This document shows, piece after piece, positions 10,322 through 64,000 of a DNA stretch of 64,000 nucleotides. The position numbers and the translations under genes were made by a program. A model generated the notes under the pieces. The model was given only the letters and a program-made list of their open reading frames with translations, did not search any database and was not told the origin of the DNA. Origin of the DNA: a virus; the IMG/VR virus record IMGVR_UViG_3300035158_000222, positions 35,955 to 99,954 of that record. One strand, given 5' to 3'. How positions within the stretch are numbered: the stretch's first letter is position 1; every line of letters begins with the position of its first letter.

Positions 10322-13300
10322 TTATATTTTAGCACGTTCAGGAACTCTGGTCAAAACCTTCCGGTCTTCCAGAGTATTACTGAATTCCTCGTTCGTGAAT
10401 GCGATAACGTTTGTTACAATGAATGGATTCACGTCGCCCCAGCCTTTTAGCGGCTTAGGCAGGGTTGACAATGGGTATCTGCGCATAACTCTCAGTAGTT
10501 CTGACCTTAGCAGCGGTAGTTCCTCGAGATCCTTCTGTCTCAGTGCATTGACTCTGGCTATTCTGGCTTCCCACCATTGATCCCATTGCGCGTCTGTCCA
10601 GACTGATCTGTCTTGCCAAGTGCCTCGCTTCACAAGAATATCCTCTACTTGCTTCTTAATATCAAATGGGATATTTTTTCTGAACTTGTTTTGCTGTCTC
10701 ACAGCCCATGCCTGGTCAGGCCTTTTGTTGTCTTCGATGCGTAAGCCCTCTTCCATTTGTCTACCTAGGGACAGATAGGACAGGAACTTCTTCTCTGGAT
10801 GGCGCTTAAAGTATTCATTGCGCAACCAGGATGGTAGCATCTTGAAATAATATGTTGACATGAACGTGCCAAACGTTGTGGCCCATGTGCTCATAGCTCT
10901 CCCGTACAGCTTGTTTAACAGCCATCTGCCTTCCTCGGTTCTAGTATCCGGTACGGCAGGAAGAAGATCTTTGAACTTCTCTGCGCTTCTCCATTGCTTC
11001 TGCTCTACAGCTTCGAAGAACTTCTCAGCCTTACTAAACTTGTTGCGTGTAGTATCGAACTTTGATCTGTCTGTCCAGTATGATGTAGGCATCTTGGATA
11101 CTTCCCAGTATTCCTCTAGCTCTGGATATCTATCCAGGAATGTCTGTCTCAATTCGTATTGCTTATCAGAATCTTCGTGCTCGATCTTAAAGTAGGCTCT
11201 CTGAAGTAGGCGTATTCTCCGTATCCCCGGAGGAACCTGGAGTAGCAGATAGCGATCTAAGTCTTCATGTTCTAATAGGAATTCGCGCCTCTCGCTGTCG
11301 TAATCGAGGGCGTTGTATTGCTCCATGAGCGTGTCCATAGCCTGCTGCTTGGGAGTGCGTGTTATTTCCCTATCGGATTTAAACCACTGTTCGAATTCAG
11401 GGTTGTCATCAAAATACTTCTGAGCTTTAGCCCGGGCCTCAAAATAGTCAAGGTAGTACTGCCGACCTTTACCATCAGCCTCGACCTTGTCTATTATCGT
11501 ATAATATATTTCACGTTGTAAATTAAATGCGACTTCTTCTTCGCTTATATCCTTGTCGCGATCCCACCATTCTCTGAGCTTAGGATTCTCTCGCAGGAAT
11601 TCTCTCCGTTCTTTCCGGCCTTCCCACGACTCTCTGTCTATAGCTTCGTACTGTTTCCATAGAGTATATGCTTCGATAGCTCCTGGGTTTGCACTATCGT
11701 GGCGTAGTCTGTAGTCCTTGTTGGCATCAGAGAAGTAGAACTCAAGCGCAGCAGCACGTCCGTCTTTCTCTTTGATATTGTTATGATCGTACCAGAACTT
11801 GTAGTATCCGACTATTCCCGGCTTATCTCTCTCCCATGCGTCTCTTTGAGTTTTGTTTTCGGCTTTGAAGAAGTATCCTAACCTGTCTTGGAATTCCTCA
11901 AACTCCTGCATCTTAAGAGCCATAGGATAGTATACCTTCCTGTCAGGGTGGATATCAAAGTATCTGTTCCGGAACCATTCTTCCTGGTCGTATACGAATT
12001 GGTAGATAATGCCTGGATCTTTCTCAAACTTGTCAGCTGCGTCTTTCCATACTCGCTGGTAATCTACTACAGAGTGTACTCCGTCTATCTTCTTGTTCTC
12101 ATGATAGGTCTCTCTTGCTTTCTTATTCTTTTCTGACCAGAACCAGACTGTGGCCAGGTTAGTTCTTTTTCCGGTAAGGAGTTCGTTCTCTTCGTCGCGC
12201 TTCTGTAGCTCCAGCCAGGTACGGACATACGGATACGTGATTCGTTTCCATGTGTTATGTTCCTTACTGAAATAGAATTCTCGGAAGTCATCCCATCCTT
12301 TGTTGCCCTTCTTCTGGAAGAACAGGTCGAAATATATCGTACTATCGTCCACCTCTCTTGCCTTGGTCAGGCCGTCATACAGTTGCTTCAGTTTGTCATA
12401 GTAGTTATATGTTCCCGGTCTTCTTCTGTCCCAGGCCTTGAGTGCGTTCTGATTCTTCCAGATATAATCGTATAGGCCTTTCCAGTCTGCTGGATCGAAT
12501 CCGGTTTTATCCTGGGTATCTACTATCTTCTGGCGCCTGATATTAGTCTCCTGTACTAACGGGAAGTACAGTCTAGCATCAGGATTGGAAAGATAGTACC
12601 ACTTCCTGAACCAGCCAGGCTTGGCATTGAACCAGTTAAAGAAGTCTGTGTCTTCTTCACGCTCTATGCGCTGAATCATTTCTCCCCACCAATTACCGTA
12701 TTGTACACGCTTCTCATAGTATTCACGCTGCCACGGCGGCATCTCGTCAAGATATCTTTGCTTCCACTTAGGTATGCTAAGGATAAGATCTTCTAACCTC
12801 TTGTTATATTTATCCCAGTACTTATTAGCTTCCTCATCTGGGAGTTCGTCTAGGTTATCCGGTAGGGTAGCAAATACCAGAGACATGCGTCCGTAGAAAC
12901 GCGCATCTTCATCTCGCGCCTGTTCCTGCGCCTCCAGGCCTAGGGCCTGCCATCTTTGGTAATCAACTTCGGCTTCTTCCTTGTATATTTGAGGATCAAG
13001 GAATGTAACTATAGCATCATACTTCTCGAGTATTTTAACAACCTCGTCAATATTCTTGACTTTCAAGTTTCCAAATTTATCGAATAGTTCAGCGCGCAGC
13101 TCCGCCTCCTTGAACGGCTTCTTGAACGGATGTGAGATACCGGCCAGATTCATTCTGGCTATCTTGTTTTGATCTACATCTCTCGTAGTCGTTAGCATCT
13201 TCCTTATGGATGCTTCAACCTGGGCCATCTCGAACTTACGCTTACCGAGTATCTGCTTAGACGTAATGCCGTATTGTTTCTCAAGATCATCAAAGTGCTT

Positions 13301-58383: not shown

Positions 58384-58936
58384 ATATGGCTACGATCTGC
58401 CCCTTATAAATTACATGCCTAGCAGCAGTTCCGCATTTCTTATAAAAATCGGGAACTGACTCAAACACCTGTAGGTGTGCTGTATATGGCATATTCATGG
58501 GGCTGCTTATAATTACATTATAGCTTATTTTTCTGCACCTGTCTAATACTTCTTTCGGGTTTTCCAGGTGCTCCAGGACATCCAATAAAAAAGTAGCATC
58601 GAACTTTTGGTCTGGATGTGCTACTTCAAAGATGTACTGGTTCAAGTCCATTAGGAGATATTCAGGGCCGGGGTACCACTGACCTGCGCGATCCATTCGA
58701 ACTACCGAGTAATCCACGCCGGTTACTTTGTACTTCATCCTATCGGATAGATAAAAGGAGAACCTTCCGTCTCCACATCCGAGATCAAGTACCCTTCCTT
58801 TGTGTGGTATATCAGCTTTCAGCTGCCCAAGAACTTCCGGAATATCCTCGGGCGATAGCGCTGTACCGTAACCAGGATGTGAATTATAGTGGTCCTGTAG
58901 TTCCTTTTCCTTTTTGTTCTTGACTTTTATTTCCAT
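58373..58936 (-). CDS. class I SAM-dependent methyltransferase
   Basis: VLDLGCGDG, GVDYS, DVLEHL. Confidence 0.9.
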   Translation of the reverse strand: MEIKVKNKKEKELQDHYNSHPGYGTALSPEDIPEVLGQLKADIPHKGRVLDLGCGDGRFSFYLSDRMKYKVTGVDYSVVRMDRAGQWYPGPEYLLMDLNQYIFEVAHPDQKFDATFLLDVLEHLENPKEVLDRCRKISYNVIISSPMNMPYTAHLQVFESVPDFYKKCGTAARHVIYKGQIVAIYES

Positions 58937-59204
58937 CTATCATGATGACGATAGACTTATCGTCTTTAAATTTGTTAACCATATCATTGTAGGAAACAAG
59001 TGCATCCATGATGTTATCATAGTTCAAATGCTCCGCAAGAGGAAGAGAATGTACTCCGTCATAGCCATAGGCGTAGACGTTATACTCTGTCTTGCCCTTC
59101 AGGGAAATTGATTGAGTCATTGCGACTCTTACCTTGTTTCCCTTGCTTGCCAGGCTCTTGAAGTCCTGGTATGTTATTGTTTCTTCGACGTCTTTGAATG
59201 ACAT
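58884..59204 (-). CDS. hypothetical protein (EALV-motif paralogue family)
   Basis: NYDNIMDALVSYN matches NYRNIIEALVKFE of 41042-41404. Confidence 0.6.
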   Translation of the reverse strand: MSFKDVEETITYQDFKSLASKGNKVRVAMTQSISLKGKTEYNVYAYGYDGVHSLPLAEHLNYDNIMDALVSYNDMVNKFKDDKSIVIMIDGNKSQEQKGKGTTGPL

Positions 59205-59561
59205 GTAGTTTCCTTTTGATACGATAGCGCTCGGCCCTATCTGCCTGATGCTTCCTTTTCTTCCGTGTTCCCCAGCCGTCGCCTTTTTTGTATGACTTAG
59301 TTGAAAATGCCATATGAATTGGGGAAAAATTTGCTCACCCAGTGACACTTCCTTAATAGGCGGTATGGGTGGGTGTGTTTAGAGGCAACGAACTTAAGTT
59401 CGTGTGTGCCTTTTGCTTAACATGAGCCATAGACAGCGTCATCCGGTAGGATTAAGAATTAGAGGATGGGCTGACGAACCATGGGCTGGCTAGGCTCTAC
59501 ATGGTATTTCGGCGGTGCTCCTAATGGAACCCTATGGCAGTGTGTTGCTGCGCTTGCCTTA

Positions 59562-59657
59562 GACTGAAAGTGGGATTCGAACCCACGTTCCCGCCGGTTG
59601 CTGGTTCAATAACCGAGCGTTCCTTGCGGAGTCCTTACCGACTAGACGATTTCAGTC
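59562..59657 (-). ncRNA. atypical tRNA-like RNA with an expanded anticodon arm
   Basis: Acceptor (G)ACTGAAA/TTTCAGT(C), D arm, T arm GTGGG-TTCGAAT-CCCAC; CCGC/GCGG encloses 31 nt. Confidence 0.65.
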
Positions 59658-59704
59658 TGCTCACCCTAACTGAATAGAGCGGGCATCGTTTTCCCAAACG
59701 AGTG

Positions 59705-59776
59705 AGCATGTACAGGGAATCGAACCCTGCCCCTCTGGTTGGAAGCCAGACGTGCCGCCGTCAACACCTCACATGC
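59705..59776 (-). tRNA. tRNA-Gly(TCC)
   Basis: TCTGG-CT TCC AA-CCAGA, full cloverleaf. Confidence 0.9.
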
Positions 59777-59843
59777 GTTTATGACAGAGGTACTGTGGAA
59801 TACCCGGGTTCGCCACAAGCACTCGAGCCTCTCTCCTGTCCGG

Positions 59844-59915
59844 AGCCTCTAGTAAGAGTCGAACTCACGTCAACGGATTACAAATCCGCCGCTCTGCCAA
59901 TTGAGCTATAGAGGC
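59844..59915 (-). tRNA. tRNA-Thr(TGT)
   Basis: GCGGA-TT TGT AA-TCCGT. Confidence 0.9.
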
Positions 59916-60011
59916 TTATGTTCCTTCCTGTGACAGTCGGAACATAGTATAATACATTTCTTTATTTCTTCCATGATTCTTTCTCGTCCCCATCCAAGCC
60001 TTCTCGCATAG

Positions 60012-60215
60012 TTAGCAGCAGTCGCTCTCGTATCTCTTTTTAAAATGCTTTTTACGAACGACTTCGAAGTCTCTCATGCGTCCGTGTTCGTTAGTGACAT
60101 GGCTAGAGTAGTCATATGGACCATTCTCACCAGCATCATAAATGACACCTAGATAATCTTCTAGGTCTCGTACTCTTTGTAAGAGTTTTTTGTACTTGCT
60201 TTTTCTTCGGAACAT
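60012..60215 (-). CDS. hypothetical protein
   Basis: 67-aa ORF between tRNAs. Confidence 0.5.
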   Translation of the reverse strand: MFRRKSKYKKLLQRVRDLEDYLGVIYDAGENGPYDYSSHVTNEHGRMRDFEVVRKKHFKKRYESDCC

Positions 60216-60249
60216 AATGGCTGATACTCAATTATTATGTTAATAAGTG

Positions 60250-60323
60250 TCGGAGAGGTCGGATTCGAACCGACGACCTTACGGACCCAAACCGTACGCC
60301 CTACCAGACTAGGCCACACTCCG
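60250..60323 (-). tRNA. tRNA-Pro(TGG)
   Basis: TACGG-TT TGG GT-CCGTA. Confidence 0.9.
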
Positions 60324-60433
60324 AGGCTTTTCAGAGGACCATTCCTGCTTTTGTTTGCCTTCTTCCCATGTAGTAGTGCACCACATACCGGCCCTCTTAA
60401 CGTATTTAATTTTAGGTTTTCTTTTAATCATAG

Positions 60434-60507
60434 TTGGAACGGTAGGATTTGAACCTACGACTACACGGATATCAGCCGTGCGCTCTACCGGGCTGAGCTA
60501 CGCTCCA
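60434..60507 (-). tRNA. tRNA-Ile(GAT)
   Basis: CACGG-CT GAT AT-CCGTG. Confidence 0.9.
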
Positions 60508-60513
60508 TGGTAG

Positions 60514-60585
60514 TTCAGGAGGTAGGATTCGAACCTACGATCTTCTGGTCCAAAGCCAGATGACTTGCCGCTTGTCCACTCCTGA
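60514..60585 (-). tRNA. tRNA-Gln(TTG)
   Basis: TCTGG-CT TTG GA-CCAGA. Confidence 0.9.
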
Positions 60586-60591
60586 GTGCAG

Positions 60592-60666
60592 CCGAGAGAG
60601 TAGGATTCGAACCTACGACATCCGGTTTAGAAGACCGGTGCTCTATCCGGGCTGAGCTATCCCTCG
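60592..60666 (-). tRNA. tRNA-Arg(TCT)
   Basis: CCGGT-CT TCT AA-ACCGG. Confidence 0.9.
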
Positions 60667-60741
60667 TGGAAGCGACAAGGGGAATCGAACCCCTGCTTGC
60701 AAGGATGAAAACCTTGTGTCCTACCATTAGACCATGCCGCC
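60667..60741 (-). tRNA. tRNA-Glu(TTC)
   Basis: CAAGG-TT TTC AT-CCTTG; encoded CCA. Confidence 0.9.
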
Positions 60742-60747
60742 ATACTG

Positions 60748-60821
60748 TGGACAGTGCGGGAATCGAACCCACGACCTCCGGCTTGCAAAGCCGATGCTCT
60801 ACCAGCGTGAGCTAACCGCCC
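60748..60821 (-). tRNA. tRNA-Ala(TGC)
   Basis: TCGGC-TT TGC AA-GCCGG; G3-U70 pair. Confidence 0.9.
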
Positions 60822-60827
60822 TAGATG

Positions 60828-60900
60828 CTCCTAGGGCTGGGCTCGAACCAGCGGCCTCCTGGTTAACAGCCAGGCGTTCCACCAACTGAACTACCTAGGA
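60828..60900 (-). tRNA. tRNA-Asn(GTT)
   Basis: CCTGG-CT GTT AA-CCAGG. Confidence 0.9.
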
Positions 60901-61088
60901 TTATCCTTGTGTTTTATATAAAAACCAACAGCAAGAATTCCTACTATCATACCTATTAAGAATATTGATATATCTACGATTAAGTCCATAGGAAGTTCTA
61001 TTGTATATTGATTAATTTTGTATATGGTCCTCTCACAATTTTCCATAGTTTCTATGTCATATGCCCGAGTACGGGGATTTGAACCAAG

Positions 61089-61160
61089 CGCCTCAAGGGA
61101 GAATCGAACTCCCAGCACCTGGTAGACAGCCAAGTATGTTAGCCATTACACCATTGAGGC
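61089..61160 (-). tRNA. tRNA-Asp(GTC), nested replacement copy
   Basis: CTTGG-CT GTC TA-CCAGG; its 5' end overlaps the endonuclease stop codon. Confidence 0.88.
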
Positions 61161-61598
61161 TTTCCATCTGTATATAGTATTGTAGGATACGTTAATCTCT
61201 TTGCCTATTTCTCTATATGATAATCCCTTATTTAATAATTTATCTATTTGTTTTCCTCTCTTAGTATATTCTACTTCAGCTGCTTTGATGTCATGCTCTC
61301 TATCTTTAAGAATATTAAGCGCAGTTATAGCTTCTTGTTTCTTAACTTTCAAATGAGGAATTATCATTTCAAGAAATAGTATAAGATCTGATGACTTACT
61401 ATGATAATATGTCCATGCTTGCTTCCAATGTTTCTTTCTAGTCTTTACCTTAGTTATACCGCCATAGCCTAAGAACTCTTTGATCTCATTTAGTATTTCT
61501 TTATTTGTCTGTGATATCTGTATTCTAAATCTTTTGTTTCTTGCTCTAGTAATAGTACCTTCACCATCAAAGAATCCAGCTAAATATTGTATATTCAT
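61146..61598 (-). CDS. free-standing LAGLIDADG homing endonuclease with C-terminal HTH
   Basis: YLAGFFDGEGTI, ISQT, IIPHLKVKK, LSYREIGKEINVS. Confidence 0.92.
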   Translation of the reverse strand: MNIQYLAGFFDGEGTITRARNKRFRIQISQTNKEILNEIKEFLGYGGITKVKTRKKHWKQAWTYYHSKSSDLILFLEMIIPHLKVKKQEAITALNILKDREHDIKAAEVEYTKRGKQIDKLLNKGLSYREIGKEINVSYNTIYRWKASMV

Positions 61599-61672
61599 AT
61601 ATTCGTAGTTAATCCCCCGGATCTCCTGCGTGACAGGCAGGCGCTTTGAACCTGACTAAGCTACACCCGGTC

Positions 61673-61748
61673 TGGTGTCCCGGGCGGGAATTGAACCCGC
61701 TGCGCCTAGGGCTTCAACCTAGCGCTCTACCGGTGAGCTACACGAGAC
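61673..61748 (-). tRNA. tRNA-Phe(GAA)
   Basis: CTAGG-TT GAA GC-CCTAG; encoded CCA; one bulged nucleotide in the acceptor stem. Confidence 0.85.
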
Positions 61749-61828
61749 ATGTGGAAGGGGTAAGGAGATCACCTTCCACGGAGCAGTCTCTGAAAAGAGA
61801 CCGCGAAAACACCTTATCTATAAATGAA

Positions 61829-62182
61829 AGAACAAAGTGCAAGCGAGGTGGGATTACCATCACCCACAATCCTCGACGTACTATCAGCTTTTAGATTTGA
61901 GCCATCCATAGGCCCACCTATGGACTGCTGCCCTTGCCGTACGTGGCTTCTTGGGCAATCCGTACCACGGCGGCAGAGTTCTGGCCGAGGCCTTCGACCT
62001 TCCTCCACGTCCGTTCACGTTACGGAGCCAGATTCAGTTTATTTGCTGGCACTTTGCAACCAGTAGGTACAGTAATATTCTGCGAGAATGCACGCTAGCC
62101 CCTTTCTCACCTGTCGGGCGTCGCGCCGCACTAGGCCCTGATTCCTACAACCTTATTATGCGACTCACCTGCACTTTGTTCT
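61829..62182 (-). ncRNA. large multi-stem structured ncRNA candidate
   Basis: 13-bp terminal stem AGAACAAAGTGCA/TGCACTTTGTTCT enclosing many hairpins. Strand inferred from the flanking tRNAs. Confidence 0.7.
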
Positions 62183-62188
62183 CTATTG

Positions 62189-62260
62189 GGTGTCTAGAGA
62201 GAATCGAACTCTCGTTGACGGGGCCACATCCCGCTGTTCTACCATTGAACTATAGACACC
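62189..62260 (-). tRNA. tRNA-His(GTG)
   Basis: GCGGG-AT GTG GC-CCCGT; G-1:C73. Confidence 0.9.
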
Positions 62261-62265
62261 GTAGT

Positions 62266-62342
62266 TGGCACCGGGTCCGGGTGTTGCGCCCGGTACTTCG
62301 GTTTTGGAGACCGATGTGATAGCTGTCGTTCACCAACCCGGC
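62266..62342 (-). tRNA. tRNA-Trp(CCA), non-canonical T loop
   Basis: TCGGT-CT CCA AA-ACCGA; T loop CGCAACA; encoded CCA. Confidence 0.8.
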
Positions 62343-62348
62343 TTGTTG

Positions 62349-62419
62349 AGCTCTGGGTCGGGGTCGAACCGACGATTGATGGTCTGCAACCACCCGCCTT
62401 ACCACTTGGCCACCAGAGC
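62349..62419 (-). tRNA. tRNA-Cys(GCA)
   Basis: GGTGG-TT GCA GA-CCATC; U73. Confidence 0.9.
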
Positions 62420-62472
62420 CTGTGGGCCGGGTAGGACTCGAACCTACGATATCCCTGAGGGAGCCGGGACTG

Positions 62473-62555
62473 TGGGCAGTGAGAGAGTCGAACTCCCTGA
62501 GCCCGAAGGCAACTGGTTTACAGCCAGCACCGCTACCCCTACGGATTAACTGCCC
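62473..62555 (-). tRNA. tRNA-Tyr(GTA), nested replacement copy
   Basis: GCTGG-CT GTA AA-CCAGT, long variable arm; its 5' end overlaps the HNH stop codon. Confidence 0.88.
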
Positions 62556-63012
62556 TTGTTTGAGAGTGACAGTTTGGACAAAGTATCTGTAAGTTTTCAA
62601 GTCTGTTATCTGTATGATCCTCATTAAGATGATGAAGATGTAGTACTAGTTTGTTCTTATTCCAGATATTAGATTGTCCGCACTTTTCACACTCTTCTTT
62701 CTTTAGCTTGAACTTATATAGCTTTTCTTTAATCCTGTGACTTTTCCATCCAAGACCATTCTTGCATAATACATATTTCTTGAATGTTTCTACAGTATGT
62801 TCATTAGTTACATTTGCTTTGGTTGATGACCATCCACGTTTCTTGAAGTGAGAGGTATTTATTCCACATTCCTTGATGCGTTTGCATATCAAGTTATGGC
62901 TGCCACCTCCGACCCTTAGGCCAAGCTCTCTTACTATATCTGCTACGTTATTATGTTTGTTAACAAGCTTGGTTAGTAATTGCTTGGTATATTTTGATGA
63001 TCCTTTCTTCAT
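62539..63012 (-). CDS. HNH homing endonuclease
   Basis: CEKCG...W....LVLHLHHLNEDHTDNRLENLQILCPNCHSQT. Confidence 0.92.
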   Translation of the reverse strand: MKKGSSKYTKQLLTKLVNKHNNVADIVRELGLRVGGGSHNLICKRIKECGINTSHFKKRGWSSTKANVTNEHTVETFKKYVLCKNGLGWKSHRIKEKLYKFKLKKEECEKCGQSNIWNKNKLVLHLHHLNEDHTDNRLENLQILCPNCHSQTRAVNP

Positions 63013-63116
63013 AAGTTCTAAGTTAACCCGGAGTAATTGCCGCTATACGACCGACCCATTATAAAGCCTACTGGTTACACCAGTGATGATGGCTATAATA
63101 ATGTTGTCGGCTAGTA

Positions 63117-63470
63117 TTACGCATAGTTCATGGGTAGTTCGTACGGGTATGTCTTGCCAGGTTTTTTGCCCCTGTCAAGAAGATATACGAACTCTATATT
63201 ATATAATTCTGTTAAAGATTCTCTTAGTGTCCGGTAGGGAGCAATGGCCGCAATGATCACACTCTTCTTCTCTTCAACGCTGATCCTATAGGCCTCACGC
63301 CCGATCTCCAGGCAGTTAAGATACCGGCCGTTCTTAGACATATCACGGTTCTTTGTCTTTTTCCGGAAGTCGTCGCCGTCTATGATGACTGAATCGGGTA
63401 TTAATTTCGCTAGCTTCCGGGACAATGTTGTCTTACCGGAACCGCTATTACCTGTTATCCATAGGATCAT
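63117..63470 (-). CDS. adenylyl-sulfate kinase-like P-loop kinase
   Basis: ILWITGNSGSGKTT, IDGDDFR, IAPYR.LR. Confidence 0.75.
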   Translation of the reverse strand: MILWITGNSGSGKTTLSRKLAKLIPDSVIIDGDDFRKKTKNRDMSKNGRYLNCLEIGREAYRISVEEKKSVIIAAIAPYRTLRESLTELYNIEFVYLLDRGKKPGKTYPYELPMNYA

Positions 63471-63471
63471 A

Positions 63472-63806
63472 TTATTGGTTATACTCGACTAATCTAGCTA
63501 TCCACTGTTTAAATTCTCTATAGCTGTAAGAGTGTTTCGCTCTGTTGCATATAATACACGCGGTAACACAGTTGCTTTTAATATAGCCGAGTTTATTATT
63601 TACCCTATCGATACCATTATATGTAACGTCTTTGCCACCTGGATACTTTCTTTTAAGGGTTTGCCATGGCTGGCATCCACAATAATGACATGGTAGAGAT
63701 ATTAGTAATTTGAATCTTTCAAGGTATGGTCCTTGGCACTATCAGTCTTACTCAAGACTACCCAGTGCCCGAACTTCATCTTCTTTATATTTCTTAGCTT
63801 TGGCAT
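63472..63806 (-). pseudogene. internally deleted / frameshifted HNH endonuclease
   Basis: N-terminal MPKLRNIKKMKFGHWVVL in one frame. CHYCG...NGIDRVNNKLGY..SNCVTACIICNRAK lies in another frame, preceded by stops. Confidence 0.7.
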
Positions 63807-64000
63807 TTCTGATTCTTGTTCCAGATATAGATTCAAGCTCCGGTGATAGTCTGATTTGATGATAAGAATAGCCCGGGGTTCGTCCGACTACTACGCCCTC
63901 TATATCGGGAATAGTTATTATCTTTAATAAATTGTTTCCTCCAAAGGCCTTGCGTACCATCTTCTTTCGTTCCTTGTATGTATGCGGATTATCTTTGCTC
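63748..64000 (-). CDS. C-terminal part of a cytidylyltransferase-like nucleotidyltransferase (5' end outside window)
   Basis: SKDNPHTYKERKKMV...IPDI..VVVGR.PGY...ISGTRIR. Confidence 0.65.
   Translation of the reverse strand, partial: SKDNPHTYKERKKMVRKAFGGNNLLKIITIPDIEGVVVGRTPGYSYHQIRLSPELESISGTRIRNAKAKKYKEDEVRALGSLE

Follow-up and report, generated by a model that had tools for sequence, protein, structure and literature searches.

We found that a tRNA-Tyr gene of an uncultured phage is split at its anticodon loop by an insert of ~555 bp, which consists of a 14-nt leader, an intact HNH homing-endonuclease gene and a complete tRNA-Tyr(GTA). The cassette is a real feature and a variant form of free-standing homing endonuclease. 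Its best explanation, which we consider probable, is that a unit made of a nuclease gene and a foreign tRNA-Tyr broke the resident tRNA-Tyr gene and that the nested copy rescues the lost function, i.e., that the cassette is a ribozyme-free ‘home-and-rescue’ element. The window analysed here is the final 64 kb of a 99,954-bp IMG/VR virus record (a phage genome of ~100 kb, estimated completeness 85%). The coordinates of the cassette and of a sister cassette in the same window are collected in Table 1.

Results

Anatomy of the split tRNA-Tyr gene

The contig carries 22 tRNA genes, all located on the minus strand and clustered at both contig ends, among which the nested tRNA-Tyr is the sole intact tRNA-Tyr. 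Direct reading of the outer gene showed that both halves are intact and collinear, and the half coordinates and pairings of the original prediction were correct: the acceptor stem pairs over 7/7 positions (one G-U) and the anticodon stem over 5/5, as does the T stem (5/5). With any 2-nt filler between them, the halves form an ARAGORN-valid 85-nt class II tRNA, whereas if they are joined directly, the loop is non-canonical (G32, T37) and ARAGORN reads it as Leu(TAG). At most five of the seven anticodon-loop bases are assignable and the anticodon was destroyed by the insertion, so that no GTA is present, which the original prediction had stated and which reading of both junctions confirmed. The outer gene is therefore a pseudogene. 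It was not called by ARAGORN with introns allowed, because its anticodon loop is incomplete. As a chance control, our split-tRNA detector returned 0.11 matches per randomised genome. It required only an orphan T arm together with a matching 5' end bearing T8, A14 and GG, and the figure takes into account neither the anticodon-stem match nor the homology of the halves to real tRNA-Tyr genes.

Table 1 Features of the tRNA-Tyr cassette and of the neighbouring tRNA-Asp cassette (positions in the window).
Feature	Positions	Strand	Description	Evidence
Outer tRNA-Tyr, 5' half	63027-63057	minus	nt 1-31: acceptor 5' strand, D arm, anticodon-stem 5' strand	read directly
Leader	63013-63026	minus	14 nt before the HNH start codon (13-14 nt ahead of ATG)	read directly
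HNH homing-endonuclease gene	62539-63012	minus	157 aa	PF01844 E=1e-4; phrog_10822 E=7e-39
Nested tRNA-Tyr(GTA)	62473-62555	minus	complete	ARAGORN; Rfam tRNA 39.7 bits
Junction C-A-G-T	62469-62472	minus	4 nt, from nested tRNA discriminator to resumption of outer tRNA	read directly
Outer tRNA-Tyr, 3' half	62423-62468	minus	anticodon-stem 3' strand, long variable arm, T arm, acceptor 3' strand, A73	read directly
Sister Asp cassette	61062-61670	minus	tRNA-Asp(GTC) split at T stem/loop; 1 kb downstream of the Tyr cassette	
LAGLIDADG-HTH ORF of the Asp cassette	61146-61598	minus	stop inside nested tRNA-Asp	
Nested tRNA-Asp	61088-61160	minus	complete	

Another possibility is that the halves still yield a working tRNA, either joined after excision of the nested tRNA or annealed in trans in the style of archaeal split tRNAs. 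When the 635-nt transcript was folded in silico, both the minimum-energy and the centroid structure contained the acceptor helix and T arm of the outer gene, formed across the insert (thermodynamic model only). However, in addition to the missing anticodon and the non-canonical loop of a direct join, removal of the nested tRNA would leave nuclease mRNA on the 5' half, there is no ribozyme, and no bulge-helix-bulge logic was apparent from reading the junctions by eye. Archaeal split tRNA genes consist of separately transcribed halves with complementary leader and trailer, bulge-helix-bulge joining and a complete anticodon loop, whereas the halves in the window are collinear in one array, lack the anticodon and have no complementary extension beyond the stems. 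We thus regard working halves as very unlikely.

The outer gene derives from a tRNA-Tyr

Several lines of sequence comparison support the assignment of the outer gene as a broken bacterial-type class II tRNA-Tyr. It bears the marks of this class, namely a long variable arm, the G1-C72 pair and A73, and it is homologous to tRNA-Tyr genes. A motif covering the T arm and acceptor of the 3' half, with two degenerate positions, was found at 30 IMG/VR loci, comprising 25 intact tRNA-Tyr(GTA) genes, one tRNA-Val, one Leu-like tRNA at a locus edge and three loci of a second split tRNA-Tyr (see below), and the 26-mer of T arm plus acceptor is identical to that of intact tRNA-Tyr genes of other phages. 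When the outer gene was compared to ~1,100 distinct phage tRNAs, a set enriched in tRNA-Tyr as it was partly gathered by Tyr-directed scans, 15 of the nearest 20 were tRNA-Tyr. The best intact match over both halves was the tRNA-Tyr of locus L103, which has the same D arm and an almost identical T arm; the 5' half is identical to it at 23/31 positions, and the differences in the acceptor, D and anticodon stems are compensatory. The motif census and the L103 match indicate that both halves come from one functional tRNA-Tyr gene. The Tyr identity, originally argued from A73 and the variable arm, is thereby borne out by homology, and an origin of the halves from different tRNAs, which would have spoken against the prediction, was checked and not found, both halves matching one Tyr lineage.

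The insert combines a foreign nuclease gene with a tRNA-Tyr of another lineage

The HNH gene has an intact zinc-finger/HNH motif at residues 108-151 (CxxC, HH, N and CxxCH present), while no solved structure related to it by sequence was found. Its TAG stop codon (62541-62539) coincides with nt 15-17 of the nested tRNA, so that ORF and tRNA overlap by 17 nt; the predicted overlap of an HNH ORF with an intact tRNA-Tyr(GTA) was thus confirmed by ARAGORN, Rfam, PF01844 and the position of the stop. Because the stop codon lies inside the tRNA, processing by RNase P would sever the tRNA from the nuclease mRNA. The GC content of the ORF is foreign to the phage, with 35% compared to 44.5% for the genome, which places it in the lowest 0.3% of genome windows. 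In the neighbouring Asp cassette, the GC content of the LAGLIDADG ORF is 30%. Given this low GC, both nuclease ORFs look recently acquired.

The HNH gene lies in neither an intron nor an intein: only 13 nt precede its ATG, and at the other end its reading frame continues into the nested tRNA, which adjoins the 3' half. A search of positions 58500-64000 for group I introns (Rfam Intron_gpI) gave no match at E<=1, and the insert is too small to accommodate one. A search for promoters and terminators gave no signal that was specific to the cassette. In an alignment, the nested tRNA-Tyr and the outer gene fell into different lineages, and at this divergence the two would not be expected to share a cutting site. 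The idea that the nested lineage always travels with nucleases was rejected; the lineage is common and, in other phages, mostly has no nuclease ORF upstream.

The leader motif TTAACTnnGAAnnT has two exact matches only in the 64-kb window, at 63026-63013 and 61612-61599 (minus strand), both directly preceding the ATG of a nuclease ORF within a split tRNA, in the Tyr and the Asp cassette, respectively. We roughly estimate that two AT-rich 14-mers would match in this way by chance with a probability of ~0.002. The leader of a further split tRNA-Tyr (L137, see below) starts similarly (TTAAACT); in the other relatives the shared leader was looked for and was absent. The shared leader may mark the end of a cassette, act as an expression signal or be left over from an exchange of modules. 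The TT at its start (63026-63025) could alternatively represent nt 32-33 of the old anticodon loop, and their assignment to loop or cassette is uncertain because the leader motif is common to both cassettes. Of the TT...AGT that had been taken as the remnant of the loop, the bases themselves are thus present, but their origin as a remnant is uncertain, TT also being the start of the shared leader. The C-A-G-T junction at the other end may be filler, or else what is left of loop nt 36-38.

The HNH family inhabits phage tRNA arrays in intron, adjacent and nested forms

The window HNH has 252 relatives in IMG/VR, and the 80 that were fetched lie mostly in same-strand phage tRNA arrays. Three contexts were observed. 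In the intron form, 19 of 60 distinct relatives lie within 690-900-nt introns in the anticodon loops of tRNA-Leu genes (L012 1396-2200, L039 1368-2204, L079 1395-2205, L015 1309-2185 and ~15 more loci). These introns match Rfam Intron_gpI with 39-63 bits, and for L012, L039, L079 and, more weakly, L015, the group I core was placed after the end of the ORF and ahead of the 3' exon. The intron hosts found for the family were tRNA-Leu only, never tRNA-Tyr, and the insertion point in the window, the anticodon loop, is the tRNA position of the intron form. In the adjacent form, other relatives lie immediately upstream of, or overlap, an intact tRNA. The nested form was found a second time within the same family in L026, where an intact tRNA-Cys lies within a split tRNA-Cys, the HNH stop is inside the nested tRNA, and both the nested and the outer tRNA carry U73, the Cys discriminator. 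Judged by these sequence contexts, the family appears to target phage tRNA genes, and a group I intron would normally make its insertion harmless.

With 43% identity, the closest relative of the window HNH is that of L006, a phage with in-frame TAG codons. Its gene is free-standing, and its ORF ends in the same frame and at the same position inside a tRNA-Tyr of the window's nested lineage. Because this fusion matches, the window cassette is most simply an L006-type HNH-tRNA unit inside another tRNA-Tyr. In a tree of the HNH family, the intron, adjacent and nested contexts were intermixed and the window enzyme sat on a long branch whose position the tree did not settle; this tree came from a quick search and does not separate an intron-derived from a free-standing origin.

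An alternative explanation is decay in situ, in which the outer tRNA-Tyr would have held an HNH-bearing group I intron, the ribozyme would have been deleted and a tRNA-Tyr would have taken its slot. This is in line with the intron-borne relatives at the same tRNA position, whose ribozyme core fills the very slot, from ORF end to 3' exon, that the nested tRNA fills in the window. However, decay needs two precise deletions, of a 70-130-nt 5' intron part and of a ~200-nt core, plus a precise tRNA insertion, and the HNH-tRNA-Tyr fusion already exists free-standing in L006 with the same frame and stop position. Moreover, every intron host found is a tRNA-Leu and not a tRNA-Tyr, and the anticodon loop of the exons is incomplete in the window. 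Decay in situ is therefore an unlikely origin of the cassette.

Several phages of this set (among L006, L020-L024, L026 and L137) have in-frame TAG or TGA codons in nuclease ORFs together with suppressor-like tRNAs, which suggests that stop codons may be recoded in several of them.

A filled and an empty site in cultured phages

Members of the HNH family were also found in cultured phages, namely Vibrio phage D69, Agrobacterium phage Atu_ph07, the Pseudomonas phages phiPsa347 and PPSC2, and the Felixounaviruses pSJ21 and SP22. In the three records inspected (D69, phiPsa347 and pSJ21), the HNH gene lies in a tRNA array directly before a tRNA, which is annotated as tRNA-Leu in phiPsa347 and pSJ21. 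Most Felixounaviruses lack the HNH gene, and a comparison of Salmonella phage pSJ21 (L229 1175-1719) to Escherichia phage ekra (L231 1275-1351) provided a filled and an empty site with identical flanks. Only the first 11 nt of the resident tRNA-Leu(UAG) are left in pSJ21; its remainder to the 3' end is replaced, and the 11-nt stump is followed by the HNH gene and a different tRNA-Leu(UAG). This pair shows that HNH genes of the family move together with a tRNA and that the resident tRNA of the same anticodon is overwritten.

We also observed phage tRNA-Leu genes that are only 74-77 nt long and without the long variable arm that is expected of a tRNA-Leu (G000 contig 1024-1261, L229 1646-1719, L231 1275-1351).

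The nested design recurs with other nucleases

The nested design was found with five nuclease types. The original prediction of two nuclease families with the same architecture 1 kb apart was confirmed, with an HNH gene in the Tyr cassette and a LAGLIDADG gene in the Asp cassette. The outer pieces of the Asp cassette join to an ARAGORN-valid tRNA-Asp(GTC), and its LAGLIDADG protein has one IMG/VR relative only, which lies outside a tRNA context.

In a 388-kb phage (L004), an unrelated HNH gene and, behind it, a degenerate Tyr-like tRNA are inserted after the anticodon loop of a tRNA-Tyr gene whose acceptor and T arm are those of the window's outer gene, and this arrangement is present in three independent assemblies (L002, L003 and L004). 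The same L004 carries a second cassette (11366-12233, minus strand) with a 228-aa endonuclease (phrog_15137) and a nested CAT tRNA with an unusual C33, in which the TAG stop of the endonuclease is U8-A9-G10 of the nested tRNA; the outer gene of this cassette has a Gln-like D arm yet A73, and its isotype is not decidable. In L137, a PDDEXK_5 nuclease gene followed by a nested tRNA-Tyr interrupts a tRNA-Tyr at the same position of the loop. This nuclease is related to PDB 2OST, which we take to be I-Ssp6803I. The nested and the outer tRNA were of equal isotype in 5/5 decidable cases (window Tyr, window Asp, L026, L004 Tyr and L137). A recurrent class, as originally proposed, thus gains support from L026 (Cys), L004 (Tyr and CAT), L137 (Tyr) and the pSJ21/ekra pair; the design is nevertheless rare, with one further case in 109 loci (827 tRNAs).

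These cases bear on the possibility that the cassette is a passive scar, i.e., that array recombination joined a nuclease and a tRNA by chance, the nuclease being without specificity and the nested tRNA a mere passenger. Both junctions are indeed non-homologous, and tRNA fragments and nuclease remnants are common in such arrays. However, the agreement of isotypes in all decidable cases, with different nucleases, disfavours random capture; the insertion position is the one at which introns of the nuclease family insert; and the Felixounavirus pair is a like-for-like replacement. We consider a passive scar improbable as well.

It is also conceivable that the structure is an assembly chimera of two tRNA-Tyr alleles, as it comes from a metagenome assembly for which close relatives for comparison were not found. 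Against this, both junctions have unique sequence, the reading frame of the HNH gene continues into the nested tRNA, the layout recurs in the independent L002, L003 and L004 assemblies of another phage, and a related replacement layout is present in the finished genome of the cultured phage pSJ21. A chimera is thus extremely unlikely.

Searches for an empty-site allele of the window phage in IMG/VR and a metagenome collection did not find one. The exact 5' half of the outer tRNA had no match in IMG/VR, neither the 5' half nor a gapped empty-site pattern had a match in the metagenome collection, and the upstream kinase gene, used as a query for phage relatives in IMG/VR, found none. A degenerate 5'-half pattern matched only the split gene of L002-L004 and coding sequences by chance.

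Neighbouring features in the array

Directly upstream of the split tRNA lies a gene for a P-loop kinase of 117 aa (63117-63470, minus strand; Pfam APS kinase 7.5e-12), with weak matches to a tRNA ligase kinase domain and a polynucleotide-kinase PHROG and no relatives in IMG/VR; it might belong to RNA repair. The remnant of a third nuclease gene is located just upstream (63475-63836, minus strand), whose C-terminal 75 aa match endonuclease VII/HNH PHROGs (phrog_1035, E=2.5e-8). This C-terminal part and the N-terminal piece do not share a reading frame, so that the gene has been either frameshifted or degraded by decay. Within the array, we also observed a 97-nt ‘tRNA-Phe’ call (59561-59657, minus strand; Rfam 43.6 bits) that is over-long for a normal tRNA-Phe, and a GC-rich stretch of ~440 nt (61750-62190, minus strand) with no Rfam match at E<=1.

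Discussion

The reading of the cassette as an insertion with replacement is well supported, and we infer that its own enzyme made the break. According to this reading, a resident phage tRNA-Tyr would have been broken at the anticodon loop by a compact mobile unit made of a short leader, an HNH gene and a fused complete tRNA-Tyr(GTA) of a different lineage. The window HNH, or a recent ancestor, would have cut the outer tRNA-Tyr gene in the anticodon-loop region, and the unit would have been captured at the break through illegitimate joining; an illegitimate event is needed for the first insertion because both junctions are without homology. The nested allele, diverged from the outer gene, would resist cutting and supply the tRNA-Tyr. 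The element may now be able to home into intact alleles, with the halves and flanks serving as homology, and expression of the nuclease is perhaps limited to unprocessed transcripts. We counted against this explanation that the junctions lack homology, that the nested lineage is mostly nuclease-free, that the design is rare, that the HNH branch is long, that no phage relative was found and that the outer isotype of the L004 CAT cassette is unclear.

The closest characterised system is SegB of T4/T6, a free-standing GIY-YIG homing endonuclease encoded in a tRNA cluster that cleaves the tRNA genes of SegB-less relatives and spreads together with the adjacent tRNA genes, termed ‘intronless homing’ (PMC2330249). 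In T6, a unit of tRNA-Tyr plus segB was amplified as one piece (PMC13096335). Like the window HNH, segB is a nuclease gene amid phage tRNA genes. However, SegB is a GIY-YIG enzyme whose gene lies between intact tRNA genes with no split target, whereas the window HNH gene lies inside a split tRNA, and the SegB papers describe neither an overlap of ORF and tRNA nor a like-for-like nested replacement (PMC2330249, PMC13096335).

Intron-encoded tRNA endonucleases share the anticodon-loop insertion with the cassette, and the window HNH is homologous to those borne by tRNA-Leu introns. An example is I-Ssp6803I, cited in PMC3984707 as the endonuclease of a group I intron in a Synechocystis tRNA-fMet. 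It has its fold family in common with the L137 nuclease (PDDEXK_5, 2OST). With intron-borne endonucleases, function is restored by RNA splicing, whereas the window cassette would do so by a second gene at the DNA level. According to a 2014 review, all phage group I introns then known were located in protein-coding genes (PMC3984707). The tRNA-Leu group I introns reported here go beyond that review, since it had only phage introns of protein genes.

Two further systems resemble parts of the proposed logic. In Aeromonas phage Aeh1, nrdA is split by the free-standing nuclease gene mobE without intron or intein, and the pieces are still functional together. While both pieces work in that case, the pieces in the window are dead and a whole spare copy is carried. 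The synthetic HomeR gene drive, which uses Cas9 in insects, is placed inside a targeted, needed gene and carries a cleavage-resistant rescue copy (PMC7968924). The target-and-rescue logic is the same, but HomeR is engineered, whereas the window element is natural, resides in a phage and would rescue an RNA gene, with a putatively resistant rescue copy. In a search of the literature, we found no report of a nuclease cassette that lies within a split tRNA and brings along a like-for-like spare.

Only tentatively do we extend this reading to a general class of elements in phage tRNA arrays. Such ribozyme-free homing elements might use a spare cleavage-resistant tRNA in place of the group I intron, exchange unrelated HNH, LAGLIDADG and PD-(D/E)XK modules and drive the turnover of tRNA alleles, and the overlap of ORF and tRNA might couple nuclease expression to tRNA processing. 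The 14-nt leader shared by the two cassettes of the window hints at module exchange on a common chassis. With the Felixounaviruses of E. coli and Salmonella, to which the pSJ21 pair belongs, an experimentally tractable model is available in which the idea is directly testable.

To our knowledge, homing endonucleases have been thought to persist in useful genes only via introns or inteins, or beside their target. The cassette would represent a third solution, in which the small gene destroyed by the nuclease is carried along as a complete spare, so that a useful gene is occupied without cost. If confirmed, this would account for the duplicated, fragmentary and fast-changing tRNA genes in phage arrays, would show the intron-borne and intron-free forms of one nuclease family to be interchangeable, and would provide a natural example of the cleave-and-rescue logic of engineered gene drives.
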